From Dubosiella newyorkensis (GTDB taxonomy: Bacteria > Bacillota_I > Bacilli_A > Erysipelotrichales > Erysipelotrichaceae): a stretch of DNA of 32,000 nucleotides. Location: the NCBI RefSeq assembly GCF_001945605.1, contig NZ_MPKA01000064.1, forward strand, positions 6,833-38,832, given 5' to 3'. The translations under genes were made by a program, and so were the position numbers. The notes below the pieces were generated by a model, which was given only the letters and a program-made list of their open reading frames with translations, was not told where the DNA came from and made no database searches. Below are positions 1 to 16,146 of the stretch, piece by piece; positions within the stretch are counted from its first letter, which is position 1; every line of letters begins with the position of its first letter.

Positions 1-358
1 TCGAGGCTGAGAGAAACAATATATTTCTCTTTTCTTTCTTGAAGCCATTCCTGAACTGGTCCGTGGACTAATGTTCCATTGGTGGTAGTTTCAAAATAGG
101 TATTCCGATCCCCGTAAACATCTTCGATGTAGGAATCGATTTTTTTTAGGAGAGCAAAGTTTGCGAAGGGCTCTCCACCAAAAACTTCGATCAGTGCTGT
201 CTCGCCAGGAGGTATCTCCCCATAAAAACTGTCAATAATTTCTTTCGCGGTCTCCCAACTCATCTTTTTTTTATTCTTAAAGTGCTCGTAACAGTAGAGG
301 CAGTTTAGGTTACACTCTTCGGTTAATAAGAGCATGATTTTTTTTTGATCTTTATCCA
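1..358 (-). CDS. radical SAM peptide-modifying enzyme (anSME/SPASM-like); N-terminal 119 codons only, remainder lies left of the window
   Basis: Hand translation from ATG at 358-356: MDKDQKKIMLLLTEECNLNCLYCYEHFKNKKKMSWETAKEIIDSFYGEIPPGETALIEVFGGEPFANF...KYIVSLSL. Has the CxxxCxxC radical-SAM cluster motif (CNLNCLYC) and a GGEP motif. Missing from the ORF track because it has no stop inside the window. Confidence 0.8.
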
Positions 359-420
359 TAATCTTTTCCATTCTAATAACATAAAGTGAAGAGAAATGTT
401 TCTCCTCACTTATTTAGTAA

Positions 421-579
421 TTAATCCCATCCACAGGATTTCTTATGAGCTGTGCAACTGCAGCTATAAGCAGTAAAACCTGGGTCATACGAATATTCAG
501 TTTTATTCTGCGTTTTTTCTGCTTTCTGAATCATTGATTCAAGAGTTGCATAGTCTTCACTTGAAAAATGAAAACTCAT
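421..579 (-). CDS. 52-aa candidate RiPP precursor peptide (Cys/Trp-containing C-terminal core)
   Basis: Hand translation: MSFHFSSEDYATLESMIQKAEKTQNKTEYSYDPGFTAYSCSCTAHKKSCGWD, stop TAA at 423-421. SD AAAGGAG lies ~8 nt upstream of the ATG (579-577). The peptide ends 62 nt upstream of the rSAM start on the same strand. Too short for the ORF track. Confidence 0.55.
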   Translation of the reverse strand: MSFHFSSEDYATLESMIQKAEKTQNKTEYSYDPGFTAYSCSCTAHKKSCGWD

Positions 580-773
580 ACTGTTCTTCTCCTTTCTTGT
601 TTTCTAAGTTTGCAAAAGCAATTAAGCAAAAGTCATTCTATGCTTAACTACTTTGAAGCCCACAAACTATTCACTTGCTAAGTAACATTCATGAGCTTTA
701 TTCAAAGGAAGAATTTAAATAATCCTCCCTATTGAACGACAACACTATTACCATTTACGGCAGATTTATTTAG

Positions 774-983
774 CTATCGAACCAAGCGTATGATTGCGGT
801 CATTAACCACTTAAGGATAATTAGGCAAGTAGCTACATAACCTACTGCAAATCCAATCGCCGATCGAGCGATAAGTTTTCCGGTTCCCGGACCTTCGAGA
901 GCGGGAATTCTACCCACCATAAACTTATTGCCTACGTAAAAGGCAATAGCAGAATAGACGAGTATTACCAAAAGTCCTTCCAT
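774..983 (-). CDS. small (69 aa) two-TM membrane protein, unknown function
   Basis: Track ORF. SD AGGAGAAAG upstream. Two hydrophobic helices (LLVILVYSAIAFYV; FAVGYVATCLIILKWLM). Confidence 0.5.
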   Translation of the reverse strand: MEGLLVILVYSAIAFYVGNKFMVGRIPALEGPGTGKLIARSAIGFAVGYVATCLIILKWLMTAIIRLVR

Positions 984-1030
984 GATTCTCTTTCTCCTAT
1001 CCTCTATATCCTCTAGAAAAACGAATTTCG

Positions 1031-1414
1031 CTATTCGATTCCCGTTTGCTCAGTAAACTCTGAGTAGGGAATAGATTCCTCAGCATCAAATAATTTGTTC
1101 GCGAACTCAAATTGCTTTGAAGGGCTGTCAATCAAATCTTCTTCAACATAAAGAAATTCATCGCCCGTTTTCGTATACACAATCGTTGAATTTCCTAGTC
1201 TGCCGTAGTTCACTACGATATTGCTCGGTTGCATAGAAGTATGCATAATTTTTGAAAAAGCAAAGTAATCCTCAATGTTATCGACTGGTTTTTCTACAAC
1301 TAAGTAATCTGTTTCATTTTTGCTGCTTGTTATTGAAACCTCGTCGGTAGTTGAGCAACCGAGAATGCTCAGGCTCATGCCTATCAGTAGGAGGAGCCGA
1401 AGTGTCCTTTTCAT
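1031..1414 (-). CDS. putative lipoprotein, unknown function
   Basis: Track ORF. SD GAAGGAG. Signal peptide MKRTLRLLLLIGMSLSILGC with a lipobox-like ILGC. Confidence 0.65.
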   Translation of the reverse strand: MKRTLRLLLLIGMSLSILGCSTTDEVSITSSKNETDYLVVEKPVDNIEDYFAFSKIMHTSMQPSNIVVNYGRLGNSTIVYTKTGDEFLYVEEDLIDSPSKQFEFANKLFDAEESIPYSEFTEQTGIE

Positions 1415-1429
1415 TTTTTGCTCCTTCTA

Positions 1430-1759
1430 TCACTTGACTAAGTTTCCAAGCTCTTGAATTTTTTTAATCAAGCTTTTTTTAGGTATTGAAGCAGTGAAAC
1501 CAGAGAGTTGCATTTCGCCTGCACCAACATTTCCTATTCCTACCTGCACCCAGCCGTAAATATTGAGTGCATGATCAACTTGATCAAACGTAAGAAACTG
1601 CATGGCAGTTAGCGCACCTGTTCCTTTTTTATAAACGGGGTTCTTATCAAGGGGACTCTCAATTTGTTTAAATCCATTACTAAGACAAAAATTATTGATG
1701 ATTTGTGCGATGGTTTCTGGGTCTTTACTGGTAGTGTATGAGAACTTACTTCTAGACAT
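1430..1759 (-). CDS. hypothetical protein (109 aa)
   Basis: Track ORF. SD AAAGGAG 7 nt upstream. Its start overlaps the stop of the upstream gene by 8 nt, suggesting translational coupling. Confidence 0.55.
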   Translation of the reverse strand: MSRSKFSYTTSKDPETIAQIINNFCLSNGFKQIESPLDKNPVYKKGTGALTAMQFLTFDQVDHALNIYGWVQVGIGNVGAGEMQLSGFTASIPKKSLIKKIQELGNLVK

Positions 1760-2180
1760 TACTTGCTCCTTTGGTCATTTTTAGCCCCACTAAGCCTAAT
1801 ATTGCAGTAATAACATCAATATAAATTCCATTTTCAAAGCCTTCGCAGACCCTTAGGAACAGATACTGTATGTCTGAATCTACATTCCCTCTCATCATAG
1901 GTGGAACAATTGCGATGATTAGGAGTTCAACTATTAAACCCACACCAATTCCTGAAAGCTTCCCTGGTCTATTTCCTTGAGAAATAGCAAAGAGTATATA
2001 TAGGGCTTGAGCAACAACTATTAAGCCGACGACTGCAAACCAAATCGCATCTCCTGACGACATACCGTGCCAACCATCTAGGTTTCCTGACACTGAACCA
2101 AAATTCATCAGCAGGGAGGCGAGTATAGAACCAGTTAAACCAAGATAACCAATTAAAGCCAATATGTTTACTTTTTTCAT
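1752..2180 (-). CDS. multi-pass membrane protein (142 aa), unknown function
   Basis: Track ORF 1752..2261, trimmed to the internal ATG at 2180-2178 (MKKVNILALIGYLG...), which is preceded by AAGGAAGGGAG. About 4 hydrophobic segments. Confidence 0.6.
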   Translation of the reverse strand: MKKVNILALIGYLGLTGSILASLLMNFGSVSGNLDGWHGMSSGDAIWFAVVGLIVVAQALYILFAISQGNRPGKLSGIGVGLIVELLIIAIVPPMMRGNVDSDIQYLFLRVCEGFENGIYIDVITAILGLVGLKMTKGASNV

Positions 2181-2354
2181 TTTTCTCCCTTCCTTTAGAA
2201 TCCCCGACCATTCCCTCCTTTCTTTAGGTCTTTTTTTGTAGACTATTTTGAACATTACCAATGAACTTATTTAAAGTTTGAAATAAACACAATTAAGGGA
2301 TTAAAACCCGAATTATCAACTTTTTATTGACAAATTGCTGGACTAGTAAGATAA

Positions 2355-2401
2355 TGAAAAGCAAAATAAAAGATTCCCGAAAAGTCTACTTTAAGGGAAT
2401 C
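2355..2401 (-). terminator. rho-independent terminator of the recombinase gene
   Basis: GATTCCC (2372-2378) pairs with GGGAATC (2395-2401), with the stop codon in the loop. On the minus strand it is followed by TTTTATTTTGCTTTT. Confidence 0.45.
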
Positions 2402-2985
2402 CTTCTTTTTTTATACTTATAATAGGTGTTTTTGCTAATGCTAAAGTGTCGGCAAAGATCTTTAACAGTGACCTCGTGGGATTCACATTTTTTAACCCAC
2501 TCGTCAAATTCTTGAGGTAGTTCGAGCTCTGGTCTGCCAAATTTTACTCCACGTGCTTTTGCGGCAGCTATCCCCTCAGCTTGCCGTTTTTTTATTGCTT
2601 CTCTTTCCGTCTGGGCAACAAAAGAAAGAATCTGAAGGACAAGGTCAGCAATGAATGTGCCCATCAGATTCTTTTCGGTTCTTGTATCGAGTAACGGCAT
2701 ATCAACCACTACCATATCCACGCCATTTTCTTTAGTCAGGACCCGCCATTCCTTTTGGATCTCCTCATAGTTCCTGCCAAGCCTATCAATGCTATAGACA
2801 TAAACCACATCACCTGGCTTCAACTTTTTGATAAGTGCTTGATAGTTTGGGCGATTAAAGTCCTTTCCTGATTGTTTATCAATAAACAGATGGTCAGACT
2901 CAATCCCGAGTTCGCTCAGAGCATTAACTTGTCTTGCTTCGTTTTGATCCATGCTACTAACACGGATATAGCCATAAATTGCCAT
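2386..2985 (-). CDS. small serine recombinase (resolvase/invertase family) with C-terminal HTH
   Basis: MAIYGYIRVSSMDQNEARQ... has the catalytic Ser in the YxRVSS motif. Also RLGRN and a C-terminal HTH (VKDLCRHFSISKNTYYKY). Track ORF 2386..3117 trimmed to the ATG at 2985, which has the perfect SD AAAGAGGAGGAA. Confidence 0.85.
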   Translation of the reverse strand: MAIYGYIRVSSMDQNEARQVNALSELGIESDHLFIDKQSGKDFNRPNYQALIKKLKPGDVVYVYSIDRLGRNYEEIQKEWRVLTKENGVDMVVVDMPLLDTRTEKNLMGTFIADLVLQILSFVAQTEREAIKKRQAEGIAAAKARGVKFGRPELELPQEFDEWVKKCESHEVTVKDLCRHFSISKNTYYKYKKRRIPLK

Positions 2986-3160
2986 AAATTCCTCCTCTTT
3001 GGTTGTGATTGGTTTTAACTCATTCATCACAACTATTCGAGTAAGAATTCTGCTTTCTGTTAGATAGGAATCTGAGTGGATTTTCCTAAGAATAAGATCC
3101 TTCCAGAAAAGGGTCATGGCCGTATAATAGTCTGACAGATCTTTTGTTTTGGCTTGTTAG

Positions 3161-3475
3161 TCAAATAGCCATTTTTGCTGCTTTGTTCTGATTGTCCAGA
3201 AGTACTAATTTAGTGATTTCATCAGTATTTATAACAGGTTTCAGATATCCGCCCATAATCAAGTCAATCACTGGTAGCGGGTTTTCATAATCACCAACCC
3301 AGTCCCCGTAGCTAATCTGCCAAAAACCATCTTTACTGTAGCTCATCATCAGTTCGTCATTGAAGTCGACAACGACTTCGCCCTCTCTCAGGGTCGGATA
3401 GACCTCATCTGGTTCAGTGAGGATCTTTTCTGGGTTCCAGCGCTTTACGCCTTCCAGGATTGTATTTAGTTCCAT
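3161..3475 (-). CDS. hypothetical cytoplasmic protein (104 aa)
   Basis: Track ORF 3161..3523 trimmed to the ATG at 3475 (MELNTILEGVKRW...). No family recognised with confidence. Confidence 0.45.
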   Translation of the reverse strand: MELNTILEGVKRWNPEKILTEPDEVYPTLREGEVVVDFNDELMMSYSKDGFWQISYGDWVGDYENPLPVIDLIMGGYLKPVINTDEITKLVLLDNQNKAAKMAI

Positions 3476-4019
3476 TGTTTGTCCTTTCTTAGGACCAGTC
3501 CGTATCTTGCTTAAGCAATTCAATCATACAGGAATTCAGAAGTTTTACAAGAGCAATAATCGACGAATGTACTTTACCTAAAGCATATTTCAGTCATTTA
3601 TTCTTCATAAAAAAGTCACAAATCATTCATCTTAAAGAGAAATACCGGAGAGAAGTGCAAGTCTAAAACAGGATCATCTCTTATCCAGAAACCAAATTTC
3701 GGAATAGATTAGAAGCCGACCAAACTGGAAGGAAATCGTCCAGCATTGTGAGTTCCATGGAAGTTAGCATCTCTCATAAAAATCCGTTTGATGCAAAAAA
3801 TCTTACTGGACATTTCCTTGATGCATTTCTACAGATGTTAACGCAAAATTTACAGTCTTGACGCAAACTTCCGATTTTGTTGAGAGGGCATTTTCAGCCC
3901 TTAATACTGCTTGATTTACACTATTTTTTAGAGTTAGCAAATACCCGATACCTATCGCAGATTTAGCCTATTTTTTATGCGTTTATTGGTATCGGTTAGA
4001 CGTCTCGGTTTTCAAAGCG

Positions 4020-5162
4020 ATGGAAGATGAGCAAGTCGTCAAGATCCTTTTATGCTGTTCTTCCGGGTTCACGACTTCCTATTTTGCTCAACGCTTGAAT
4101 GAAGCCGCAAAGCAGCTAAGCCTAGACTATGAATTCGATGCCACTTCGTATTTTGATCTTTACTCAAGAGCGGAAGGATATGACATGATCTTGATCGCTC
4201 CGCAGATCGGTTACATGCTAAAGAAATTTAAAAAGGCGTTGCCAAAAAAACGGGTGTGTCAGATCCCGACTTCTTTGTTCGCCTCGTACAATACGGGGGC
4301 CACATTTTCCTTTATCCAAGAGCAGCTCAAGGAATATCGCCAACAAAGTCAAGAAAAGAACTCATTGTTCAGCGACTGCAGGCTAGATTGTCCTATGCAT
4401 CAAGAAACGGTGCTTGCGATCGCCGAATTGTATGATGGCAATTCGATCCAAGTCTATATCCATATTTATAAAAAGGGCGAAGTCCTTTTTGATGATGTCG
4501 TCATCAAACCAAACTTTCAAAAAGTCGTCTTGTTCGATTTGATCCAATACGCTCTTGGGCAAGTCGAGGGTGTCGATTTGATCGTGTTGGCCGTTCCTGG
4601 CATCATCAAAGAAGGGACGATCATCGATTTCCCGCAGCGAGGTCTTAAAAATTATCCGATGAAGAAGCGGATCGAAGAGCGATTCCATATCAAAACGACT
4701 TTGATCAACAACACCAACGCAATCGCGCTCGGTTTTGCCTACCTGCATCCGGAGCATGAGATCGTGACCTACCATTCGCAACCATATGGAAGAGCGATGG
4801 GCGGTCAAGGAACTGTCGTTCACCAAAATCTGATCAACGGCATAAGCGGGATCAGCGGCGAGATCAAATTCTTTTTGCCACGCATGCAGTTTTCAAATGA
4901 GCTCGCTCGTCTTGCTAAAACCGATTTTGGGACCCAGGAAATCGTGACCAACGCCTTGCTTCCGACGATTTCTTTGATCGGGCCCGATATTATCGTTTTA
5001 AGAGCGCCATTGATCAACGACTTAGAGGAATTGAAGAAGCGGATCGCCACCTTTATCCCATGTGACGCGATGCCTGAAATCGTCATGATCGAGGATATCA
5101 AGCCTTTTTTATTCCGCGGGATCGCCGAATACGCGTGCTCCTTTCTTCAAGAAACGGAATGA
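4020..5162 (+). CDS. fusion protein: PTS EIIB (lactose/cellobiose family) domain plus ROK-like ASKHA domain, with no HTH and no Zn motif
   Basis: N-terminal ~100 aa resemble ChbB/LicB: KILLCCSSGFTTS (phospho-Cys context) and MILIAPQIGYML (compare LLGPQIAYML). The C-terminal part is ROK-like: VLAVPGIIKEGTI, NNTNAIALGFAY, GGQGTVVHQNLINGISGISGEIKFF. The CxCGxxGC zinc motif is absent and the phosphate-1 DxGGT motif is degenerate (ELYDGNS). No obvious SD. Confidence 0.7.
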   Translation: MEDEQVVKILLCCSSGFTTSYFAQRLNEAAKQLSLDYEFDATSYFDLYSRAEGYDMILIAPQIGYMLKKFKKALPKKRVCQIPTSLFASYNTGATFSFIQEQLKEYRQQSQEKNSLFSDCRLDCPMHQETVLAIAELYDGNSIQVYIHIYKKGEVLFDDVVIKPNFQKVVLFDLIQYALGQVEGVDLIVLAVPGIIKEGTIIDFPQRGLKNYPMKKRIEERFHIKTTLINNTNAIALGFAYLHPEHEIVTYHSQPYGRAMGGQGTVVHQNLINGISGISGEIKFFLPRMQFSNELARLAKTDFGTQEIVTNALLPTISLIGPDIIVLRAPLINDLEELKKRIATFIPCDAMPEIVMIEDIKPFLFRGIAEYACSFLQETE

Positions 5163-5824
5163 AGTCTCGACTTTTTCATCGCTTCATAGCCGATCCAGAT
5201 CGTCCACATATAGGCGCATGTCTTAGGAATCATAAGCATCCCGATCATTGGGATCTTTTCCGCCCATAAGACGACCGGAATATAAAATGCGAAACTCAAT
5301 ACAATCGTAAGAGCCATCCATCGAAACGCGCGATCGCGCGTTTCTTTTACTTTCCAAGCGAATAGAAGGATGATCACCGCTCCCAAAAGCGCAAACGGCA
5401 CGTTTCGAATGATTCCCCAGGCGATTGGCGGATGGGCGTTGAGCCATTCATTTTGAGGAAACATGCAAAGAACGATCCGAACTAGCGCCAAGCCATAAAC
5501 GAGCGCGTTTAGTTTTGGCGTCTTTTTCATTCCATACCGTTTTTTCCAGACTTCAAACAACAAAACATAAAAGATCGTCATCGTGATCGATGTGATCCAT
5601 TTTCCAACACCTAAAGCCGCAGTATAGTTTTCTAGGCCCGTGGTGCATAAGGCGTACGCTCTCGGGATCAAATGGAACGCGTCTCCAGCACCCAAAACGA
5701 TTGCCATCCAGCCAAACAAACGATATTGCGAGCGTGGACGACTTCTTTTGATCATCAAGATCCCGATCACCGTCACGAACGCGAGATACAAAATATCAAA
5801 ACTAGTTTCGAAGACTGCTCTCAT
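5147..5824 (-). CDS. polytopic membrane protein (225 aa), unknown function
   Basis: Track ORF 5147..5953 trimmed to the ATG at 5824-5822, which forms an ATGA stop/start overlap with the upstream gene. About 7 TM segments. Its 3' end overlaps the convergent gene at 4020..5162 by 16 nt. Confidence 0.6.
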   Translation of the reverse strand: MRAVFETSFDILYLAFVTVIGILMIKRSRPRSQYRLFGWMAIVLGAGDAFHLIPRAYALCTTGLENYTAALGVGKWITSITMTIFYVLLFEVWKKRYGMKKTPKLNALVYGLALVRIVLCMFPQNEWLNAHPPIAWGIIRNVPFALLGAVIILLFAWKVKETRDRAFRWMALTIVLSFAFYIPVVLWAEKIPMIGMLMIPKTCAYMWTIWIGYEAMKKSRLHSVS

Positions 5825-6267
5825 TTGAGATCTCCTTTCCTTTTCTTTTGTACGATCGCTTTTCCATAGCTGCAGCCAAAAAGAAGGCCTGCCCAAAACA
5901 AAGAAGCGCCCAGTCCGGTATAAAACACCGCGATAAAGCTGGAGGGAAGCCAATGAAATGTACGAATCATGATCCCGCCAATCATCATGACGGCCATGAT
6001 GATATACGATTTTGCATCAAAGAACTTTAAGACAAATTGCTTTTCTTGAATATAGTCTAAGATGCGTTGGGTGTGTTTTTGAACGAGCTTGCCAAACACA
6101 AACCACTGAAACACGCAAAAGACAACGATCGATAAAGCGATCGTGTACCAATGGATATAGGGCGGATATTCTTGAAGCCCGATCCTTAAAATATTGAAGC
6201 CGGCAAAGATCCAGACGATCGATGCGATCAGCAACAAAGTCGTTTTTTGAACTTTCATCCTTTTCAT
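5821..6267 (-). CDS. 4-TM membrane protein (145-148 aa), unknown function
   Basis: Track ORF. The more likely start is the second ATG at 6258 (GGAG 9 nt upstream). It immediately follows the tetR stop (6271). Confidence 0.6.
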   Translation of the reverse strand: MKRMKVQKTTLLLIASIVWIFAGFNILRIGLQEYPPYIHWYTIALSIVVFCVFQWFVFGKLVQKHTQRILDYIQEKQFVLKFFDAKSYIIMAVMMIGGIMIRTFHWLPSSFIAVFYTGLGASLFWAGLLFGCSYGKAIVQKKRKGDLK

Positions 6268-6270
6268 CTC

Positions 6271-6831
6271 CTAGTCATAAAGCACGCGATGCACGATTTC
6301 AAGAACGATTTTTGGATCATACTCGCCTCTCAAAGCTAAACTTTGCAGCATGGAAAAGAGCGTGTGCGCGAATGCTTTTGGGGTAAAAGAAGCATTGAAC
6401 GCGTCTTTTCGGATCTTGGGATCTTTCATAAGAACGCTTATTAGACTTTCCTCGATATGGTCCCAGATTTTGTGCATATGTTTCTGCCCTTCTTTTTGTT
6501 CATTTTTCTCAAAGTAGATCGCGTGTAGTCGAAAAAAGTCGGGATATAGAGTTTGCGATTCTTCAAGTCTTTGCATGACCCATTCGATCCAAGCGTCTAC
6601 GTCTTTAGGCGAGCTCTCCATATTTGAAGGATGGAAGATCTCTAGCCAGACGCTTTCGATCGTCTCTGAAATAAGGTCCGTTTTTGAATCGAAATAGTTG
6701 TAGATCGATCCAATCGAAACGTGGCAGGCTTGGGCGATCGCTCGGATGCTGATAGATCGATATCCTTTTGTTTGCAGGATAGAGCGGGATTGTTTTAAGA
6801 TTTCTTGCTTGGATGTGACAATCGTATTCAT
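6271..6831 (-). CDS. TetR/AcrR family transcriptional regulator
   Basis: HTH SIRAIAQACHVSIGSIYNYFDSKTDL. Track ORF trimmed to the ATG at 6831 (SD GGGAGGAAC). Confidence 0.85.
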   Translation of the reverse strand: MNTIVTSKQEILKQSRSILQTKGYRSISIRAIAQACHVSIGSIYNYFDSKTDLISETIESVWLEIFHPSNMESSPKDVDAWIEWVMQRLEESQTLYPDFFRLHAIYFEKNEQKEGQKHMHKIWDHIEESLISVLMKDPKIRKDAFNASFTPKAFAHTLFSMLQSLALRGEYDPKIVLEIVHRVLYD

Positions 6832-6845
6832 AGTTCCTCCCAAAG

Positions 6846-6858
6846 TGAACATTGTTCA
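6846..6858. promoter_or_regulatory. perfect 6-1-6 palindrome TGAACA-T-TGTTCA, candidate TetR operator
   Basis: Seen directly, 15 nt upstream of the tetR start in the divergent tetR/ABC intergenic region. Confidence 0.45.
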
Positions 6859-7160
6859 TTATAGACTCTTTTGTTTCTTTGTCAAACTGGACACAAAAGT
6901 GATTTCTCTTTATTCATTGAATGATTAAATTTTTATTCGTTGCTTATATTTTATATTATTGCTTATTTTAAATATATATTATAATATTAATTCAACCGTT
7001 ATTCACGGATCCCTATCACAGGATAGAAAGGAGGCCCCTATGAAACAAAACATCACAAACTGGTCGAATGTATTCATGGTGTCTCCTTCTTTTTTTTCGA
7101 TAAGAGCGTTTCTTCATGAATCCATTGGCCCCCCTATTGTAAATAGAAAGGTCAAAAGGA

Positions 7161-8774
7161 ATGAAAATCACAAACGAAATCAAAAATTTAACTTCTCATC
7201 TTCAATCTTTTTTTCATCTGCTCGTGCAGATGAAGCTTCAGAACACAACTGTAAAACTGCTTTTATGCGCACTGGCGACCGGCCTTTTCGAGATCCTTTT
7301 TTCTCTGGCATACGCCCGGGCCTTGGATCAAATTGCGCTTGAGGCGCTATGGCCCGTTATGCTCGTTTCCGGATTATGTCTTGCAAAGAGCGGAGCCATT
7401 CTCTTTCAAACAATACTGGACTGGCTGAGCCGCACAAACCGCAACGCCATGATCGCCAAACTGCGCCATGAAATGATGCATTCCATCCTGAATATGGACT
7501 ATGAATATTTTCTAACATTTTCCAAAGGAGAGCTCATCGACAAGATCCAGGCCTCCACCTTTGATCTGGCCGACAATCTTGGCATGTTCCTGCCCGATCT
7601 TTTCCGGCATGTCGTGATCGGAACGATCACGCTGGCTGCCGCCTTCTGCTTTGCGCCCGCACTTTCCTTCGTTTTTCTCGTCCTATGCATACTAATGTTA
7701 ATAACACAAATCTATGGCGGAAAATTTTGTGAAAAGCCGATGAACGAAATGATCGCTATGCGTAATAGGCGGGACTCCTGTATCCACGAACTGCTTTCCC
7801 ACACAAAAACGATCCAGATTTTTGATCTGGAATCTTTTGAAAAGAAACAGTTCCATCAGTCATCCGAACATTTTATCGCCTCTTTTTCCAAAGCCATGCA
7901 ACGTCTGGCGTCTGCGTTCAGTCCGGCGCGGATCTTTAATGACTGCGCGATCCTGTTTCCTTGCGTTCTGGCCGTCTTTGCGGTACGCGATCATACGCTG
8001 TCTCTTGAGCGGTTTTTCACTCTGCTGTTTCTTTGGAACATCTGCGCACAAGAATGGAAAGGACTCGACGCCATATTCGGCAATCTGCCCGGACTGCTTG
8101 CCAATTACCGCGATCTTGATCAAATCTGGAACATGCCAAAAGAAAGAACTATTTCATACCCTATTCCTGAAGATACAGTACTCCTTGAAATCAAAGATCT
8201 AGGATATGCCTATCATGACAAAACACCAGTCTTTGCCAATGAGTCCTTAAAGGTCAATTTTGAAGAAAAAATTGCTATTGCCGGAAAAAACGGGTGTGGA
8301 AAAACAACATTTCTGCGCTGTATTGCCGGCCTGTATACCCGCTATACCGGAGTAGTAGCCCGATCTCAATCTCTCAAAATCAGCTACGCCGGACAACGTC
8401 CGGGATGGTTCGAAGCTAGTTTTCGCGACAATCTCGATCCGTTACATATCCATTCCGACCAAGAGATCCACGCCTATCTCAAAGCATTCGATCTCGATTA
8501 TCTATGTGGTAGGATCGATCAGATCCCTGCCGATCTGTCGGGTGGCGAAAAACAGCGGCTAGCCATCATTCGATCTTTGCTCGAAGACCCGGATATTTTG
8601 CTTTTGGATGAGGCAACGAGCGCCGTAGACGCAAAAATTGCCCGCACCATTCATGAACAGCTAACATCTAGACCGCATCTTGCACTTCTTTCGATTGTGC
8701 ATGATCCTTCCGTGCTTGATTTGTATGACCAGGTCCTTGTTCTTGACTCAAAGGAAGGACAACACTATGAATAA
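7161..8774 (+). CDS. ABC exporter half-transporter (TMD-NBD), subunit 1 of a heterodimer
   Basis: Walker A GKNGCGKTT, signature LSGGEKQR, Walker B ILLLDEATSAVD, H-loop SIVHD. About 6 TM segments in the N-terminal half. Confidence 0.85.
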   Translation: MKITNEIKNLTSHLQSFFHLLVQMKLQNTTVKLLLCALATGLFEILFSLAYARALDQIALEALWPVMLVSGLCLAKSGAILFQTILDWLSRTNRNAMIAKLRHEMMHSILNMDYEYFLTFSKGELIDKIQASTFDLADNLGMFLPDLFRHVVIGTITLAAAFCFAPALSFVFLVLCILMLITQIYGGKFCEKPMNEMIAMRNRRDSCIHELLSHTKTIQIFDLESFEKKQFHQSSEHFIASFSKAMQRLASAFSPARIFNDCAILFPCVLAVFAVRDHTLSLERFFTLLFLWNICAQEWKGLDAIFGNLPGLLANYRDLDQIWNMPKERTISYPIPEDTVLLEIKDLGYAYHDKTPVFANESLKVNFEEKIAIAGKNGCGKTTFLRCIAGLYTRYTGVVARSQSLKISYAGQRPGWFEASFRDNLDPLHIHSDQEIHAYLKAFDLDYLCGRIDQIPADLSGGEKQRLAIIRSLLEDPDILLLDEATSAVDAKIARTIHEQLTSRPHLALLSIVHDPSVLDLYDQVLVLDSKEGQHYE

Positions 8775-10413
8775 GTCATGGCAAACAATCCGGCTTCTCA
8801 TCAAAGAAAGCCCGAAATATTGGCGCCTTTCCATCCTGGGCGCCATCCTTGCTTCCCTGCCCTGGTTTGTTTCGACATGGATTGTTTCGTGGTTTCTTGC
8901 AAAGGCTATTGACCAGGTGAATGATATGGCTTGGGATCCGGTCGGAGCATTCATCTTCGTCCTTTTTGTGATCATAATGTTGCGTGTACCGGTTATATAT
9001 GGATATCGTCTTAATTCATGGGCTGCCGAAAAGCTTTCTGCCCGCTTTCAATGGAAACTGCTTCGCTCATGGAATCGAAGAGATCCAGCTGATGTTTCGA
9101 TTTCTTTCAATGAAACATTGACCCGGATCCTGAACGATTGCGCGCAGTCCCTTTCCGAGTTTTTCTTTCAAGGCTTTGGCTTGAAAATACTAGAGCCAGT
9201 CCTGACTGGTGTGATTGCCTTGGTCGTTCTCTGGATGCTGCAATGGAAAATCGCTCTGCTTTCGATCGGACTTGGCGTCGTTTTATCGATCTTTACGATC
9301 AAGTTCACAAAAACGATCGAAGATCTGCATGCTGCACTTCAAACCAAAAACGACCAGTTGAACCAGATTTTTAATGATAATTTATCCAATATGGAAACGA
9401 TCAAAGCGATGGATCTAAGATCCCTAAAGCTCGATCAGTTCGATCGTTGCAGCTGTGAGATCCAAACCACAGCCAATCAGTTGGCAAAAATAGAGATTCT
9501 ATTAAAAACGCTCCCAAAGCTTGGCGAACTGATCCTGATCGTCTTCACGTTGCGCTTTTCGGTTCTTGATCCGGCTTTTCCGGTTGGCAATATCGTTCTA
9601 GTCGTAGCCATGCAAGTGTTTGTGAACAATTTGTTCTCCAACTTTGGAACGATGCGTAATGAGCTCGTCAAAACAGCCATTCATGCGCATAGGATCCTCG
9701 ATACGCTCGATGAGTTGCACAGCTCTGAGCGAAAAGAGAATAAAGCCATATCTTTTCCGGACCCTGTTACATTTTTTCAAATGGACCACATCGATTTTTC
9801 CTATGGAAACCAATCAATCTTACGAGATGTTTGTCTTGTTGCGAAGAAGGGAGAGCTGATGATATTAAAAGCGCTTTCAGGAAGTGGAAAATCGACTTTG
9901 CTTGATATTATCCAGGGATGGAGACAAGCAGAACACGGAACAATTTTGTGGAATGGCCAAAAACACATTCATTGCGGACTTTTTGAAACAAGAAAGAAGA
10001 TCCGGCTATTTGGGCAAGCCCCTGTGCTTTTTCAAGGAACCATTCGAGAAAACATTGAACTCGCCGCATCTAGACCTTTAAACGAAGAAGAACTGAAAAA
10101 GATAGCCGTATCGGTCAACTGGCAAAATTGCGAAATGGAAACCATGATCGAAGAGGGAGGTTCGAATTTATCGGGAGGCCAGCGACAGAAAATCACATTG
10201 ATGCAGGCGCTCGTGAGCGATGTGGACGTTTTGCTTCTCGATGAACCAACATCGGCTCTGGATCAAAAGAGCGAAGAAGTGGTATACGAAACTTTGAATC
10301 GACTCAAACAAGAAAAAATCCTTTTGATCGCGACGCATCGACCTTTGCTGATTCGCAAAGCGGACAGCATCTACTCTTGGCAAAACAAAAAATGGGTTCA
10401 TATCGACCCATAA
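8767..10413 (+). CDS. ABC exporter half-transporter (TMD-NBD), subunit 2
   Basis: Track ORF 8680..10413 trimmed to the ATG at 8767 (MNKSWQTIRLL), which overlaps the subunit-1 stop by 8 nt. ALSGSGKST, LSGGQRQK, VLLLDEPTSALD, ATHRP. Confidence 0.85.
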   Translation: MNKSWQTIRLLIKESPKYWRLSILGAILASLPWFVSTWIVSWFLAKAIDQVNDMAWDPVGAFIFVLFVIIMLRVPVIYGYRLNSWAAEKLSARFQWKLLRSWNRRDPADVSISFNETLTRILNDCAQSLSEFFFQGFGLKILEPVLTGVIALVVLWMLQWKIALLSIGLGVVLSIFTIKFTKTIEDLHAALQTKNDQLNQIFNDNLSNMETIKAMDLRSLKLDQFDRCSCEIQTTANQLAKIEILLKTLPKLGELILIVFTLRFSVLDPAFPVGNIVLVVAMQVFVNNLFSNFGTMRNELVKTAIHAHRILDTLDELHSSERKENKAISFPDPVTFFQMDHIDFSYGNQSILRDVCLVAKKGELMILKALSGSGKSTLLDIIQGWRQAEHGTILWNGQKHIHCGLFETRKKIRLFGQAPVLFQGTIRENIELAASRPLNEEELKKIAVSVNWQNCEMETMIEEGGSNLSGGQRQKITLMQALVSDVDVLLLDEPTSALDQKSEEVVYETLNRLKQEKILLIATHRPLLIRKADSIYSWQNKKWVHIDP

Positions 10414-10450
10414 GATAACTTAAAGCATTTTCATCAAAAAGAATCCATTT

Positions 10451-10514
10451 AAACGCTCCCCTTAAAACGGATAAGCGAAATTTCTAAATAGAAGTTTTGT
10501 AAGGGGAGCGTTTT
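10451..10514 (+). terminator. long inverted repeat (14-bp arms AAACGCTCCCCTTA / TAAGGGGAGCGTTT, 35-nt loop) downstream of the ABC operon
   Basis: Arms at 10451-10464 and 10500-10513, followed by T-rich sequence. The loop is unusually large for a simple terminator. Confidence 0.4.
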
Positions 10515-10723
10515 AGCATATTGTCGAGTTGTATAACGATCAAAATTTCTGTTTAAAAAAACAAATAAAATTTACTCGATTCCCATAGACTACGCCTTCC
10601 GCTTTTTAATTTGAACTTATCTCCAACATTTTAAGGTTAAATGACGGAAATAGTTTCTTAACAATCTGCAATTATTTTTAGGTATCCTGATAGAAAATAG
10701 GAAATTTTTCCGTAAATCGAACA

Positions 10724-10752
10724 CAAAAAAAGCTTCCCGTTTGCAGGAAGCT
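10724..10752 (-). terminator. rho-independent terminator of the murF-ddl/racemase/acyltransferase operon
   Basis: AGCTTCC (10731-10737) pairs with GGAAGCT (10746-10752). A7 at 10724-10730 gives a U-run on the minus strand. Lies 6 nt after the stop at 10758. Confidence 0.75.
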
Positions 10753-10757
10753 AAAGA

Positions 10758-11771
10758 TCAAATCAAATTATTCAAGATCGGATACTTTTCTTTTTCCCGT
10801 ACGATCAAGGAAGCAAGTCCTTGCGATAAAGCGATCGTCAAGAAATAGACGACAAGATTGGCGTTTGGAAAAAACATGAACAAGATCCGAACGAATAAGA
10901 TATGCGATGTATAGATAATCAAAGAATCGTAGCGCAAGATCTTGTACTGTTGACGATACGGGATCTTTACCGCCAGTAAATAATTGACTAAAAAGTACGT
11001 GGCCGGCACGAGCATCAAATACATACAGCTCAAATCATACATCATGCCGATCCGAGTATAGATCCAAACTTCCAAGATCAAAAGCGCGAAGCAGATCGAA
11101 AATGCGATCAAGCTCACCCTTGTTGGAAGCCTTCTTGTCTTCGCTAACAATAAACCGAGCGCCAAATACATCGGTCCAAAGAAAAACCCATCTCGCGCCG
11201 TGACTAGTGTTTTCGTAAAAAAGCCATATAAGATAGATACATAAGGCAGTTTTTCCCACAATGGCGCGTATACGTTGATCAAATATCCGATCAAGTAAAG
11301 AGCAAAGGCTACTTTGAGCGTAAAGGAAAGTCCTTTTCGCTTATAGATCTGATATACGATTGCCATCCCGATGATAAGAGCTGGCAAAAACCATAGATGA
11401 TAATAGCTTCCATTCAAGAAAAAATCACGAATATAGGCGAAGATCGAAATCAGTGAAAAGCCAGAACTCGCATAATTCCAAATCGTATAAGGAAGATAAA
11501 TCACCGTCCAGATCAAATAAAGCTTCAAGATCCGCCATTCATAGTGTTTAAAACGAAAGTCGTTTTCCTCTTCATCCTCGCTCCATTTCCGAAAAAAGAA
11601 ATAGCCCGATACGACAAAGAAAAATGGGACCGCCAGCCGGCAAACCGTCTGGATAAAATACGTATTGAACGTTTTAGAAATATCGACAAACGGATACACA
11701 TGGATACATACGACAAGCAGTGCAGAAATGTAGCGGGCGATATCGATCGCCCCAAATTGTTTTCCCCTCAT
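10758..11771 (-). CDS. acyltransferase-3 family integral membrane protein, resembling the N-terminal membrane domain of VanT
   Basis: About 10 TM segments. Motifs RLAVPFFFVVSGYFF, YHLWFLPALI, ARDGFFFGPMYLALG. SD AGGGGAA. Starts 13 nt after the racemase stop. Confidence 0.8.
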   Translation of the reverse strand: MRGKQFGAIDIARYISALLVVCIHVYPFVDISKTFNTYFIQTVCRLAVPFFFVVSGYFFFRKWSEDEEENDFRFKHYEWRILKLYLIWTVIYLPYTIWNYASSGFSLISIFAYIRDFFLNGSYYHLWFLPALIIGMAIVYQIYKRKGLSFTLKVAFALYLIGYLINVYAPLWEKLPYVSILYGFFTKTLVTARDGFFFGPMYLALGLLLAKTRRLPTRVSLIAFSICFALLILEVWIYTRIGMMYDLSCMYLMLVPATYFLVNYLLAVKIPYRQQYKILRYDSLIIYTSHILFVRILFMFFPNANLVVYFLTIALSQGLASLIVREKEKYPILNNLI

Positions 11772-11784
11772 AATTCCCCTAATT

Positions 11785-12933
11785 CTATTTCTTTGGCAGT
11801 CTAGGCAGCCTAGAGGCCAAGGATGTCAGCGTTTCATTGTTGATGGTGTTCATCATTCTAGAAATACGGTCGATCGTCACTCGATTTCCTTCTTGTTCGC
11901 CAACGATCACCGCTTCATCGCCCTCTTGCACGCCTTCGATCTCTGTCACATCCGCCATGCATTGATCCATACAAATGTTTCCGATCAATTTAGCCTTTTT
12001 CCCATGAAGCAGCACTTCTAGGCCTTGATTGGAGACAAGACGAGAAAGTCCATCCGCGTATCCGATCGAAAGTGTCGCGACCTTCGTTGGCTTTTGAGCG
12101 ACAAAATGCCGTCCATAGCTCACGCTTTCTCCGGCTTTGATCCACTTCACCAAACTCACATTGGCTTTTAAAGTCAAGATCGGCTTCAGACCAAGATGAT
12201 AGGCAGTGTCGATCGAATCATCGCTCGTCATACCGTTGAACAAAAGCCCAGGCCGGCAATAATCGAAACCAAGATCCCCATAATTCAAGATCCCATAACT
12301 ATTTTGAATGTGACGCAAACCAGGATCGATCCCTTCCTCTTTTAAATAAGAGATCGCTTCCTCAAACAATTCGATTTGATGTTTCGTGAAGCGTCGAGCG
12401 TCTTGTCCAAGGTCATCGCTGACAGGAAAGTGGGAAAAGATCCCCTCCACTCTTAAATACGGCAATTCATAGATCGTTTTGAGCGCTTCTATTTCTTTGT
12501 GCCCATCCTGAAAAGGAATCCCGATGCGATTCATTCCCGTATCCAATTTAAGATGCCCGCGAACGACAACATCCTTCGCTTTGGCAAAGTCATTGAGCTT
12601 CTTGGCGTACTCTTCCGAAAGGAACGACTGCACAAGGTCGTATTCAACAAGTTTTGAAAAGTGTTCTGGCGGAGTATAGCCTAGAATCAAAATATTTTCT
12701 TGGATCCCGCCTTCTCTCAGCTCGATGGCCTCATCGACACTCGAAACCCCAAAATAATCGATCCCAAGATCTCTTAATGTTTTTGCGATCGGCAAAGCGC
12801 CAAGACCATAGGCGTTGGCTTTGACGATCCCCATGACCTTGGTCTTGTTCATGAGCTTTTGGATCTCTTTCAAGTTGTGCTCGATCGTATCATAATCGAT
12901 CTCGCACCAAGCGCGTGAATACGCTTCTAGCAT
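11785..12933 (-). CDS. alr: PLP-dependent alanine/serine racemase (Alr fold; VanT catalytic-domain-like)
   Basis: PLP-Lys motif VKANAYGLG; SYGRHF; GNICMDQCMADV. Near the C-terminus it has TINNE where Alr has TINYE. The start ATG overlaps the upstream stop (ATGCTAG). Confidence 0.85.
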   Translation of the reverse strand: MLEAYSRAWCEIDYDTIEHNLKEIQKLMNKTKVMGIVKANAYGLGALPIAKTLRDLGIDYFGVSSVDEAIELREGGIQENILILGYTPPEHFSKLVEYDLVQSFLSEEYAKKLNDFAKAKDVVVRGHLKLDTGMNRIGIPFQDGHKEIEALKTIYELPYLRVEGIFSHFPVSDDLGQDARRFTKHQIELFEEAISYLKEEGIDPGLRHIQNSYGILNYGDLGFDYCRPGLLFNGMTSDDSIDTAYHLGLKPILTLKANVSLVKWIKAGESVSYGRHFVAQKPTKVATLSIGYADGLSRLVSNQGLEVLLHGKKAKLIGNICMDQCMADVTEIEGVQEGDEAVIVGEQEGNRVTIDRISRMMNTINNETLTSLASRLPRLPKK

Positions 12934-15344
12934 GCACTGACCTCTTTTTCCATCGCAAGATCGATCAAAAGATCGATCAATTCAGTAAAGGAGATCCCTG
13001 CAGCTTGCATCATACTTGGATAACGGGAAGTCGCTGTGAAGCCAGGAAGCGTATTGATCTCGTTAAGAACGATCTCGTTTTCTTCGGTCACGAACATATC
13101 GACACGCGCCATCCCCGTGCATCCCATGATTCGGAACGCTTTTTTCGCCAATGCTTGCGCGTTGGCGAATGTTTGTCCATCAATACGAGCTGGACAATAA
13201 ATATTAGCGCCTTTCATCGCGTACTTGCCTTCAAAATCAAAGATGGCGCTTTGGATCTCGATCTCGTCGACACTACCGACCTGGATCTGATCATTTCCTA
13301 AAACGGCGCAGCCGATCTCGAAGCCATTGATCGCTTCTTCGATCAAGATCTTTCCTCTTCCATCCCATTTGAACGCGTCTTTTTTCGCTTCTTCAAATTG
13401 GCTCTTTTCTTCGACAAAATGAACACCATAGCTGCTTCCCGCGTTGCATGGCTTGATGACCCACGGGAGCGGAAGCTGTTCTTGGATCTCTTCAAAGCTT
13501 GGCTGCTCTTCCCATGCCTTCAAACAAATATATCGGGCGCAAGGAATGTGCGCTTGATCGCATAAAATATGCATAATCTCTTTATCCATGCACATCGCCG
13601 AGGCGAGAATATCGCTTCCTACATAATGAATATTCATCATTTGCGCCAATCCTTGGAAGGCGCCATCTTCTCCATTTTTTCCATGGAGCACCGGGAATAT
13701 CACATCGAGAGGAATAAAAATCTCATTGTCCTTGTCATAGACGCCTTTATGCATCCAAGAACAAGAATGAATATACTCTTCTTTTTTCCACGTATCGCTT
13801 TCGATTGCTTCGATCGGACCCGTATAAATAAAGAATTGTCCGCCTTCATCGATTCCAATGCACGTTATATCGTATTTTGAGCGGTCGATCTGGTGTAGAA
13901 AACTGCCTGTCGAATGCAGCGAAACCGAATACTCACTGCTTTGTCCTCCAAAAACGACCCCCAATTTCAATTTTGCCATACTTCCTCCTGCTGTTAATTG
14001 TTTTACGATCGTATCCATCGCCATTGCACGGCTTCCTTTGATCAAGATCACACAATCCTCTTGAAGCAAAGGAAGCAAAGCTTGTACGATTTCTTCTTTC
14101 GTTTGAAAAGATGCTCCATTCTCGCCAAACGCCTTCGCGCTTTCTACGCTCAATGGACCATATGTATAAAGCTGGTCGACACCATGCTCTTTAGCGTACT
14201 TGCCAATCGAAGCGTGGAGTTCTCTTTCTTCATTTCCTAGATCCAGCATATCACCTAAGATGGCGATATGCTTTTGAGCCGGAAGGGCAAGGAGCGTATC
14301 GATCGCCGCCTTGGCGCTTTCCGGATTCGATTTATATGAATCGTCGAGAACGCGGGCATGTTGAAGCGTGAGCAGTTGTGTCCGCATCTTCGTCATTTCT
14401 AAGTTTTTAAGTCCTTGTAAGATCGTCGCATCCTCGATACCATCGTATTTGGCAGCAAGAATGACCGGCAATGCGTTCATCGCTTGATGGGCGCCCAAAG
14501 CATGCAGCTCGATCAAATCCTGGATGCCATTGGTTTTAAAGAAGATCGAATCTTTTCCATAATCGATCGAGGAAACGATCGAAAGCGTGCCTCCTTGGCC
14601 AAAGGATCGGATCGTTTTGCTCGGATCGAGTTTTTTCTCTTGCAGTACTTCTTCGATTTCCGGCGATTCTTTATTGTAGATCAATACGCCACCTTCCTTG
14701 AGTCCATCATAGATCTCCAGCTTCGCTTCGGCGATCTGCTTTTTTCCGCCTAGATTTTCCATATGGGCGGAACCGATCGTCGTAATGATCGCGATATCCG
14801 GGGGCGCGATCTTTGTCAAATAGGTGATCTCGCCTTTGTTTTCCATTCCCATTTCAAGGATCGCGACTTGCAGATCGGCATCAAAGTCTAAGATCGTCAA
14901 AGGAAGTCCGATCTCGTTGTTTCGATTACCTGGTGTCGCCGCGCTCTTCTTTACAAGAGAATAGACACTTTTCACCATATCTTTACAGCTCGTCTTGCCA
15001 TTGGACCCCGTGATCGCGATCACTTCGGCATCTAAAGAAGCTAAATACGCTTGCGCGAGCTGGCCTAGCGCTTCGATCGTATCTTCCACCAAGATCAAAG
15101 GGATCCCTTCTGGATAAGGGGTATGATCTTTTTGCCAAAAAGCAAGAGCGGCTTGTCCGTTTTTAACTTGTTCAATAAATGAATGCCCGTCATTGTGAGC
15201 GCCTACGATCGGAACGTATACATTGCCTTTTTGCACATTTCTCGAATCGATCGTTACGCCTTTTACGATTGTGTCTGGATCGTATGGTCCGCAAACTTCA
15301 CTTTGCATGTAGGTCGCGATTTCCGCGATGGTCTTTTGAATCAT
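12927..15344 (-). CDS. murF-ddl: bifunctional fusion: MurF (UDP-MurNAc-tripeptide--D-alanyl-D-X ligase, aa 1-455) plus Van-type D-Ala--D-X ligase (aa 456-805)
   Basis: MurF part: ITGSNGKTS P-loop, DDSYKSNPESA, ILGDMLDLG. Ddl part: KLGVVFGGQSSEYSVSL, HGKNGEDGAFQG, GFEIGCAVLGN, NTLPGFTATSRYP. It is one uninterrupted 805-codon ORF in the track. Confidence 0.85.
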   Translation of the reverse strand: MIQKTIAEIATYMQSEVCGPYDPDTIVKGVTIDSRNVQKGNVYVPIVGAHNDGHSFIEQVKNGQAALAFWQKDHTPYPEGIPLILVEDTIEALGQLAQAYLASLDAEVIAITGSNGKTSCKDMVKSVYSLVKKSAATPGNRNNEIGLPLTILDFDADLQVAILEMGMENKGEITYLTKIAPPDIAIITTIGSAHMENLGGKKQIAEAKLEIYDGLKEGGVLIYNKESPEIEEVLQEKKLDPSKTIRSFGQGGTLSIVSSIDYGKDSIFFKTNGIQDLIELHALGAHQAMNALPVILAAKYDGIEDATILQGLKNLEMTKMRTQLLTLQHARVLDDSYKSNPESAKAAIDTLLALPAQKHIAILGDMLDLGNEERELHASIGKYAKEHGVDQLYTYGPLSVESAKAFGENGASFQTKEEIVQALLPLLQEDCVILIKGSRAMAMDTIVKQLTAGGSMAKLKLGVVFGGQSSEYSVSLHSTGSFLHQIDRSKYDITCIGIDEGGQFFIYTGPIEAIESDTWKKEEYIHSCSWMHKGVYDKDNEIFIPLDVIFPVLHGKNGEDGAFQGLAQMMNIHYVGSDILASAMCMDKEIMHILCDQAHIPCARYICLKAWEEQPSFEEIQEQLPLPWVIKPCNAGSSYGVHFVEEKSQFEEAKKDAFKWDGRGKILIEEAINGFEIGCAVLGNDQIQVGSVDEIEIQSAIFDFEGKYAMKGANIYCPARIDGQTFANAQALAKKAFRIMGCTGMARVDMFVTEENEIVLNEINTLPGFTATSRYPSMMQAAGISFTELIDLLIDLAMEKEVSAC

Positions 15345-15367
15345 TTTTGAGCCTCCATTTGGAAAAC

Positions 15368-16145: not shown

Positions 16146-16146
16146 T

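Follow-up and report, generated by a model that had tools for sequence, protein, structure and literature searches.

An open reading frame (ORF) encoding 52 amino acids at positions 421..579 (reverse strand) of a 32,000-nucleotide stretch of Dubosiella newyorkensis DNA (RefSeq assembly GCF_001945605.1, contig NZ_MPKA01000064.1, positions 6,833 to 38,832; the whole stretch, positions 1..32,000, is referred to as the window) is interpreted here as the gene for the precursor of an uncharacterized family of ribosomally produced peptides with post-translational modifications (RiPPs), whose product would be modified by thioether formation, prenylation and a kinase, and would be expressed from a phase-variable operon. 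We put the probability of this reading at roughly 0.7. That the locus is a RiPP pathway at all is very probable: a short precursor adjoins a modifying enzyme, a radical S-adenosylmethionine (rSAM) protein that runs off the window edge, and the two are conserved together across genomes. The remainder of the operon was read from homologous contigs. Compared loci or contigs are denoted by L-numbers and homologous proteins by P-numbers; 185,579 species genomes were scanned and genomic contexts looked up to gather about 90 related loci, which were screened with local hidden Markov models.

In the proposed pathway, the leader (approximately residues 1-30) would recruit the modifying enzymes, and the rSAM enzyme would link the thiols of Cys40, Cys42 and Cys49 to side-chain or backbone carbons, giving up to three thioethers. 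A kinase would O-phosphorylate a conserved Ser/Thr residue of the core (Ser39, Thr43 or Ser48), with the phosphate either kept or used as a leaving group for dehydration, and a prenyltransferase, supplied with dimethylallyl diphosphate by an isopentenyl diphosphate (IPP) isomerase, would prenylate the penultimate Trp51. The product would be a small, rigid, extracellular lipopeptide of about 15-20 residues, acting as a bacteriocin-like molecule or a ComX-like signal. In Dubosiella and Ileibacterium, a DNA invertase would flip a 152-bp promoter segment and thereby render the operon phase-variable.

Translation of 421..579 yields MSFHFSSEDYATLESMIQKAEKTQNKTEYSYDPGFTAYSCSCTAHKKSCGWD, exactly the peptide written out in a first-pass annotation made from the window sequence alone, and the good Shine-Dalgarno sequence mentioned there is found as AGGAG at 589..593 (reverse strand), 9 nt ahead of the peptide ATG. 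The description of the peptide as unannotated does not hold, as RefSeq carries it as hypothetical protein WP_158023798.1. The distance of 62 nt given between peptide and rSAM gene was about right: it amounts to 61 nt if the rSAM gene starts with the ATG at 359, the start favored by most gene callers, or to 49 nt with the ATG at 371. A scan for terminator-like structures placed a stem-loop of 12 bp with a T-rich tail in this gap (384..411, reverse strand), which we regard as a candidate attenuator or partial terminator setting the ratio of precursor to enzyme; attenuators of this type often sit between a precursor and its enzymes. Within the peptide, residues 1-30 or thereabouts are predicted to form the leader, with a helical L-x3-MI-x-KAE segment, and residues from about 31 to 52 the core, with the C-terminus YSCSCTAHKKSCGWD. 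The precursor had 0 matches in NCBIfam, in line with the doubt expressed earlier that it belongs to the SCIFF peptides.

Exact-sequence look-up recovered the identical peptide gene on 23+ contigs, with the proteins named at NCBI as Dubosiella newyorkensis, Ileibacterium valens or 'MULTISPECIES Erysipelotrichaceae', and orthologous small ORFs adjoin related rSAM genes in many genomes. Met1, Leu13, Pro33, Cys40, Cys42, Cys49 and Trp51 are invariant in 11 of 11 peptide orthologues, as expected if the three core cysteines serve as thioether donors, a role already suggested for them in the first-pass annotation; the terminal Asp varies, with His or Gly in its place in relatives. The 15-residue tail YSCSCTAHKKSCGWD is identical between loci of different genera whose rSAM proteins are 60-65% identical and whose leaders diverge, and identical-core peptides are present in human gut metagenomes too. 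Over the last 22 codons, comparison of five loci gave 6-13 synonymous and 1-5 non-synonymous codon differences. As synonymous changes far outnumber non-synonymous ones, the core is, by its codon pattern, under strong purifying selection at the protein level. Lack of conservation of the small ORF in homologous loci, which had been named as an outcome that would speak against a precursor, was thus looked for, and conservation was found instead.

The rSAM gene occupies positions 1..371 or 1..359 of the window (reverse strand), which hold the N-terminal 119-123 residues before the gene continues beyond the edge. Its frame reads MEKIMDKDQKKIMLLLTEECNLNCLYCYEH...GGEPF..., so that both motifs reported for this edge-truncated gene, CNLNCLYC and GGEP, are present, and the fragment scores 40.3 bits against Pfam Radical_SAM (cutoff 29.5) and also passes the cutoff for Fer4_12. 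The full-length protein, taken from L001, has 387 or 391 residues depending on the start, with CX3CX2C at residues 20-27 of the 391-residue form. Its best NCBIfam match is PapB with 144.3 bits, covering model positions 4-318 of 330 and including the SPASM region, followed by the CXXX-repeat, nif11, CcpM, QhpD, RumMC and SCIFF maturases. The closest solved structure is CteB (5wgg; E 1e-14), with residues 6-314 aligned to CteB residues 97-416, and anSME comes next. The N-terminal peptide-binding domain of CteB has no counterpart, i.e. the protein has no N-terminal RiPP recognition element (RRE). In the SPASM region, ten cysteines are invariant among 13 aligned family members, including a CX2CX5CX2C motif and the residues C243, C251, C261, C292, C295, C301, C304, C323 and C329. 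CX3CX2C combined with a SPASM domain that provides 7-8 cysteines for two auxiliary clusters is the hallmark of ranthipeptide and sactipeptide maturases, and this combination is present here.

By these matches the protein is a PapB-like, RRE-less SPASM peptide maturase, no equivalog of PapB itself, and the order of precursor followed by maturase, taken earlier as a sign of a RiPP locus, is upheld by an enzyme of the peptide-maturing rather than the housekeeping kind; the full-length sequence also answers the question raised about its domains, with the SPASM cysteine set present and the RRE absent. Identity as a SCIFF maturase was rejected (69 bits against the TIGR03974 cutoff of 425, with the peptide falling outside the six-Cys SCIFF family). 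A search for homologues returned 634 proteins at E ≤ 1e-20. Remote relatives without a kinase or prenyltransferase adjoin classic Cys-rich repeat peptides, which speaks for chemistry aimed at Cys throughout the rSAM clade, and we consider it probable that the present enzyme forms thioethers. Distant relatives were also found in Bacteroidota (L087, L096, L100 and L101; Bacteroides, Phocaeicola and Prevotella), where a 47-residue peptide ending in …CGCSGDCGSNWM[QR]S is encoded downstream; the maturase family thus crosses phyla.

The same matches bear on two other readings of the rSAM protein. Were it a housekeeping sulfatase maturase of the anSME type and the small ORF spurious, some similarity to anSME would be expected, and it is indeed found (E ~2e-8); at 46.5 bits it falls far short of the family cutoff of 349, peptide-maturase families score much better, no sulfatase was found nearby, and conservation of the small ORF bears a signature of selection on the protein. 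The likelihood of this reading is practically nil, and the housekeeping enzyme that had been named as a refuting outcome is itself effectively refuted. A streptide-like pathway, in which the rSAM enzyme makes a Lys-Trp C-C crosslink on K-S-C-G-W, takes up the K-x3-W motif emphasized in the first-pass annotation, and the i/i+4 spacing of Lys47 and Trp51 is present in the peptide and its closest orthologues. Lys47 is not conserved, however, whereas Trp51 is: it is replaced by Met in L021, and the cores of L015, L024, L025, L017, L026 and L027 contain no Lys while keeping the Trp and the three cysteines. The best rSAM matches, moreover, are thioether formers (PapB, CXXX-repeat, CcpM, SCIFF/CteB) and not KxxxW maturases; the StrB/KxxxW family, which had been recommended for comparison, is absent from the best 25 NCBIfam matches, all 25 of which are other peptide maturases. 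The Lys-Trp crosslink was therefore rejected on the lack of Lys conservation, and the streptide-like pathway as a whole is highly improbable.

Followed beyond the window edge in L001 and L002, the operon has the order precursor, rSAM, kinase-like protein, 294-residue protein, 181-residue protein, NUDIX/IPP isomerase and 162-residue membrane protein, and it is translationally compact. There is an overlap of 32 nt between the genes for the rSAM (387/391 aa) and the kinase-like protein (342 aa), and that of the 294-residue, prenyltransferase-like protein begins at the base following the kinase gene. The isomerase (196 aa) is of type 1 and scores above both curated cutoffs (NF002995, 136.5 against 127; TIGR02150, 112.6 against 105.8); in relatives it recurs at varied positions, in L013 directly upstream.

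The 342-residue protein matches Pfam APH with 26.6 bits (cutoff 23.2), its nearest curated families being the SrkA/YihE Ser/Thr kinases and type-II homoserine kinases. Its catalytic H-x-D...N and D-F residues are invariant in 6 of 6 orthologues, by which the APH-like kinase is predicted to be catalytically intact. In a distant branch of the family, the kinase slot is filled by a Hanks-type Ser/Thr kinase (Pkinase, 97-100 bits) with intact GxGxxG, VAxK, HRDxKxxN and DFG motifs. Homology between the two kinases was undetectable by profile-profile comparison (hhalign probability 0.5%), and their exchange looks like a non-orthologous displacement. That one slot is filled by two unrelated kinases argues for a need for kinase activity as such, as an integral step, and since Hanks kinases phosphorylate proteins, the substrate is arguably a peptide; that it is the precursor described here appears likely. 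The conserved Ser/Thr residues of the core adjoin Cys residues. As no HopA1-like or LanL-type lyase/cyclase domain was detected in any protein of the cluster, dehydration is unproven and the phosphate may stay on the product.

The 294-residue protein had no match in Pfam or NCBIfam (both at E < 0.1) or in PADLOC, and a search of PDB sequences with its family profile found nothing. A search of 1.84 billion clustered proteins at E ≤ 1e-3 gave 167 representatives of the family, which is self-contained. An AlphaFold2 model of the homologue P0002 (35% identical to the Dubosiella protein), computed from an 18-sequence alignment with a pLDDT of 89.9 and a pTM of 0.90, has ten strands in five pairs that alternate with helices, i.e. 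five alpha-beta-beta-alpha units. When this model was compared to the PDB using Foldseek, 49 of 49 matches at E ≤ 1e-3 were aromatic prenyltransferases of the ABBA fold, mostly indole or Trp enzymes (AmbP1/FamD1, CdpNPT, CloQ, FgaPT2, NotF, AnaPT, 5-/6-DMATS, PriB, NphB, KgpF and PatF), with KgpF being a peptide Trp-prenyltransferase. Invariant K-x-Y, R, Y and N-x-Y residues lie on strands and would fit the diphosphate-binding pattern of ABBA barrels. On the modeled fold, we assign the 294-residue protein as a putative ABBA prenyltransferase of a small new family; identity as a HopA1-like lyase was ruled out by the PT-barrel fold. Together with the co-located isomerase, this fold makes a prenylation step the natural reading, and the odds tip slightly towards Trp as the prenyl acceptor. 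Wherever the prenyltransferase was detected among the loci examined, it adjoined an rSAM gene of the present family. It also occurs in fusions with Peptidase_U32 (n = 4), APH (n = 1) and GT2 (n = 1) domains, found in the proteins P0164, P0165, P0168, P0208 (~615 aa), P0198 (635 aa) and P0288 (633 aa). U32 proteins include anaerobic hydroxylases, and some relatives may hydroxylate before prenylation.

The set of peptide, rSAM, kinase and prenyltransferase recurs in Clostridia and Erysipelotrichia, with a gene order that varies between families. Close relatives (rSAM at least 51% identical, plus the 42%-identical type of L017) carry the peptide, the rSAM, an APH-like kinase and the prenyltransferase, and come from Thomasclavelia, Peptococcaceae, metagenome-assembled genomes of Lachnospiraceae, and human gut metagenomes. 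In the distant branch (rSAM 33-37% identical), prenyltransferase, peptide, rSAM and kinase are found together, often with the isomerase, and the peptides end in ...ELNFSGCASGYCQAWD or similar.

This distribution also serves to weigh the simplest alternative, an ordinary ranthipeptide or sactipeptide bacteriocin cluster in which the rSAM enzyme alone acts on the peptide and the other enzymes are small-molecule neighbors. The rSAM family is widely paired with Cys-rich peptides where kinase and prenyltransferase are absent, and some loci with a Trp-bearing peptide have no prenyltransferase, both as this alternative would have it. The coupling of the genes speaks against it, with the overlap of rSAM and kinase and the abutting kinase and prenyltransferase genes, as does the recurrence of the enzyme set in different orders, the filling of one slot by two unrelated kinases, the APH-prenyltransferase fusion, and the constant company that so rare a prenyltransferase keeps with the rSAM. 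We consider an ordinary cluster unlikely and favor joint action of the enzymes on the peptide.

Another alternative casts the peptide as a scaffold from which a modified, Trp-containing C-terminal fragment is excised to give a cofactor or small molecule, comparable to PQQ, mycofactocin or the pearlins. Conservation is higher in the core than in the leader, the opposite of what is typical of antimicrobial RiPPs, exporter and immunity genes are absent, and some relatives contain U32-family and FAD enzymes or the U32-prenyltransferase fusions, all of which would suit a scaffold. The Dubosiella cluster, in turn, is without a protease or oxidoreductase, and three invariant cysteines over 10 residues suggest a folded macrocycle and not a single excised residue. 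On this balance a scaffold is quite unlikely, and a modified lipopeptide is retained as the preferred product.

Several of the related loci deviate in composition. L017:6061-14711, from a human gut metagenome, contains the prenyltransferase, the rSAM, the peptide (...FACTCQGNCDGRTSGCSWG), two more rSAM genes, an APH kinase, a 273-residue protein, a Peptidase_U32 and an FAD-binding protein, with a tyrosine integrase adjoining. In L019:2952-7888, the rSAM gene is preceded by two precursors in tandem (…CKRWDCSISCYCANSYR and …CYRWDCSISCYCAFTFL), a prenyltransferase is absent, and the small kinase is replaced by a 1055-residue Pkinase-TPR protein with a weak, sub-threshold match to STAND NTPases. 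Downstream of the human-gut cluster in L013 (L013:11025-17170) lie genes for a membrane protein, a 502-residue coiled-coil-like protein, an FHA protein, a 191-residue rSAM protein, an AAA+ ATPase and a PP2C, which together look like an unrelated conflict or defense module.

Upstream of the peptide operon, comparison of assemblies revealed an invertible segment (inverton) of 152 bp at 2238..2389, bounded by the imperfect inverted repeats GTAGACTATTTTG and CGAAAAGTCTAC. A gene for a serine recombinase of the DNA invertase type (2386..3117, reverse strand; Pfam Resolvase, 111 bits; PHROG 'DNA invertase', 188 bits) abuts it with its 3' end. In L002 the segment 2238..2389 is flipped with both flanks collinear, and in eight other assemblies (L001, L003-L008 and L010) it has the orientation of the window. 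The features of an inverton are thus observed, with the invertase next to it, inverted repeats on its flanks and its occurrence in either orientation. The segment carries the best sigma-70-like site of the region, TTGACA-17-GATAAT (2327..2355, forward strand), with 11 of 12 consensus matches. This predicted promoter points into the invertase gene in the window, and in L002 into the gene of a 142-residue protein, towards the peptide operon; the window is therefore predicted to hold the OFF orientation. The stretch from the inverton to the peptide operon showed neither a convincing terminator nor a promoter of its own.

Homologous invertases (50-59% identity) lie directly upstream of rSAM/peptide clusters in L029, L075, L089 and L098, and each is followed by a segment of 110-150 bp with inverted repeats that share the core AAAGTAC/GTACTTT (L029:5589-5745, L075:4079-4213, L089:1680-1810 and L098:5786-5950). 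From the repeated occurrence of this module upstream of several clusters, phase-variable expression looks like a recurrent property of rSAM peptide clusters of this kind, and the segments suggest a family of invertons that accompanies them. With such an invertible promoter, most cells and most assemblies would be OFF, which would explain how a product of this sort could have been missed.

The region is part of a mobile, prophage-derived island, of which positions 1..4015 lie in the window, with the edge at about 4015 beside a ROK/PTS-IIB gene. Window positions 1..4015 are 99.8% identical to L001:16117-20159, with different flanks (a riboflavin operon in L001, ROK/ABC genes here). On its other side, the cluster in L001 borders on a phage module for lysis and tail functions that is intact (endolysin, holin, tail); in L002, which has the flanks of the window, this module is reduced to a fragment of an SH3_5 endolysin beside an IS element. 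From the occurrence of the same region in two chromosomal contexts and the adjoining phage module, the cluster is judged to be cargo that sits at the end of a prophage, be it whole or a remnant. No close relatives were found in 50,697 phage records, the PLSDB plasmids or IMG/VR.

Such a setting raises the question of an anti-phage or inter-element conflict cassette carried on mobile elements. It would be in keeping with the prophage-derived island, the adjoining integrases, the phase-variable expression, and the defense-like neighbors seen in other loci (SocA_Panacea, TerB, RhuM, PDDEXK and AAA). Set against this are the missing relatives in phage, plasmid and IMG/VR records and the architecture of the locus, as a leader-core peptide with a SPASM maturase is that of a RiPP; the search with PADLOC gave no match except a generic similarity of the rSAM to viperins. 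A conflict cassette is very unlikely on these grounds, and a known defense system was rejected on the negative PADLOC result. The preferred interpretation remains that of a RiPP operon transported as cargo.

Several points weigh against this interpretation. The 144.3 bits of the rSAM against PapB fall short of the equivalog cutoff of 340 (NF047865), and membership in that family failed. The TM-scores of the P0002 model to known ABBA enzymes are moderate (0.40-0.63), and at the sequence level the prenyltransferase matches none of the described families (Trp_DMAT, PTase_Orf2, cyanobactin F-family). Several loci of subfamily B encode the same Trp-bearing peptide with the prenyltransferase undetected, or present as a remnant in one of them, and in many prenyltransferase-less relatives the peptide likewise ends in Trp; since these loci keep their Trp peptides, the link between Trp and prenylation is not an exclusive one. 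The Dubosiella cluster has no gene recognizable as serving proteolysis, transport or immunity, although a transporter or protease was among the things to look for on extension of the contig, which leaves leader removal and export unexplained. The ON and OFF assignments derive from a consensus promoter match, and co-transcription would have to bridge the 194 nt that precede the peptide gene. The type and partners of the crosslinks are predictions, as are the residue that accepts the prenyl group and the substrate of the kinase.

The remaining genes of the operon and island offer few clues. The 181-residue protein is soluble and its gene (L001:13301-13846) lies between those of prenyltransferase and isomerase; the gene of the 162-residue membrane protein (L001:14450-14938) follows the isomerase, both being tightly packed with their neighbors. 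Two tiny ORFs and a glyoxalase-family gene come after it. For the downstream proteins of 181, 162, 67 and 66 residues, Pfam, NCBIfam, PADLOC and PHROGs gave no match, and the related loci contain no homologues of them; a role of the 181- and 162-residue proteins in export or immunity is possible but a guess.

Between the inverton and the peptide gene lie four small genes, all on the reverse strand. The first downstream of the invertible promoter encodes the 142-residue membrane protein (1752..2180), whose end is overlapped by the start of the gene for a 109-residue protein (1430..1759). A predicted lipoprotein of 127 residues, with a signal peptide followed by Cys (1031..1414), and a small membrane protein of 69 residues (774..983) follow. 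Apart from a weak match of the lipoprotein to lipoprotein signals, searches of Pfam, NCBIfam, PADLOC and PHROGs assigned the genes at 774-2180 to no family, and none has a homologue in the approximately 90 related loci; they are island-specific and not core components. The immunity or export functions once proposed for them found no support from families or homologues, and such a role is a guess.

If the locus does found a new RiPP class, as suggested further below, a core that is near-invariant across genera would indicate that receptor or target is shared, as for a lipopeptide signal between species or a molecule directed at the host, and not a strain-specific bacteriocin. A peptide-modifying family of ABBA prenyltransferases would be gained, comprising about 170 sequence clusters unseen by family models, and the two unrelated kinases in one slot would constitute a natural experiment for phosphorylation as an integral step. 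Dubosiella newyorkensis and Ileibacterium valens are prominent commensals of the mouse gut, and a conserved secreted lipopeptide would be a plausible mediator of microbe-microbe or microbe-host effects. In literature searches over 8 million full texts, no description of the combination of rSAM, kinase and prenyltransferase turned up, nor is it in a review of peptide prenylation from 2026 (PMC13290415) or in the paper on PalQ (PMC10853753); the searches returned no report of an invertase/inverted-repeat module upstream of RiPP clusters and nothing on a Dubosiella rSAM system.

Among known systems, the first step would be ranthipeptide- or sactipeptide-like; the Cys sulfur is joined to an alpha carbon in sactipeptides and to a beta or gamma carbon in ranthipeptides. 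The maturases of the PapB/freyrasin type (NF047865) and CteB of the SCIFF system (5WGG) are alike in having a full SPASM domain and acting on a Cys-containing C-terminal core, and the PapB model (330 residues) likewise has no N-terminal RRE, with CX3CX2C near the start of both proteins. The present peptide ends in C-G-W-D and those of subfamily B in C-x-A-W-D, both of which resemble the Cys-X3-Asp thioether motif of PapB. The precursor is unrelated to PapA or SCIFF, and the cluster adds a kinase, a prenyltransferase and an IPP isomerase.

The prenylation step, by analogy, would be similar to those of ComX, PalX and kawaguchipeptin. The ComX-168 pheromone ends in W-G-D. A precursor of about 50-60 residues with a Trp near the C-terminus that is modified, here by prediction, is shared with ComX/ComQ and PalX/PalQ (PMC10853753, PMC5331326) and with KgpF, an enzyme of the cyanobactin F-family (PDB 8YE0). 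ComQ and PalQ are isoprenyl-diphosphate-synthase-like and not ABBA proteins (PMC10853753), whereas KgpF and PatF have the ABBA fold in common with the 294-residue protein, which has no sequence match to the cyanobactin or DMATS families. Unlike ComX and cyanobactin systems, the present cluster contains no ComP-like receptor or cyanobactin protease and would add rSAM crosslinking and a kinase; a ComQXPA-type system was rejected, as the operon and its flanks have no ComQ-like modifier and no ComP or ComA.

A kinase beside a Ser/Thr- and Cys-rich core is shared with the class III, IV and V lanthipeptides, the thioamitides and kintamdin (PMC7794033, PMC9415263), and the lack of the lyase/cyclase domain sets the locus outside the definition of a class V lanthipeptide or thioamitide. 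The invertase abutting an inverted-repeat promoter segment, with both orientations occurring naturally, corresponds to the invertons of the Hin/Gin type in gut bacteria, from which the present one differs in its cargo of a RiPP operon and small membrane proteins. What appears new by these sequence comparisons is the combination of enzymes, the family of the prenyltransferase and an unusual regulatory switch. We suggest, tentatively and at less than even odds, that with this locus a new class of RiPPs from mammalian gut Firmicutes has its founding member, in which thioether rings, phosphorylation or dehydration, and Trp prenylation converge on one core, with expression phased by an invertase and spread by prophage islands.

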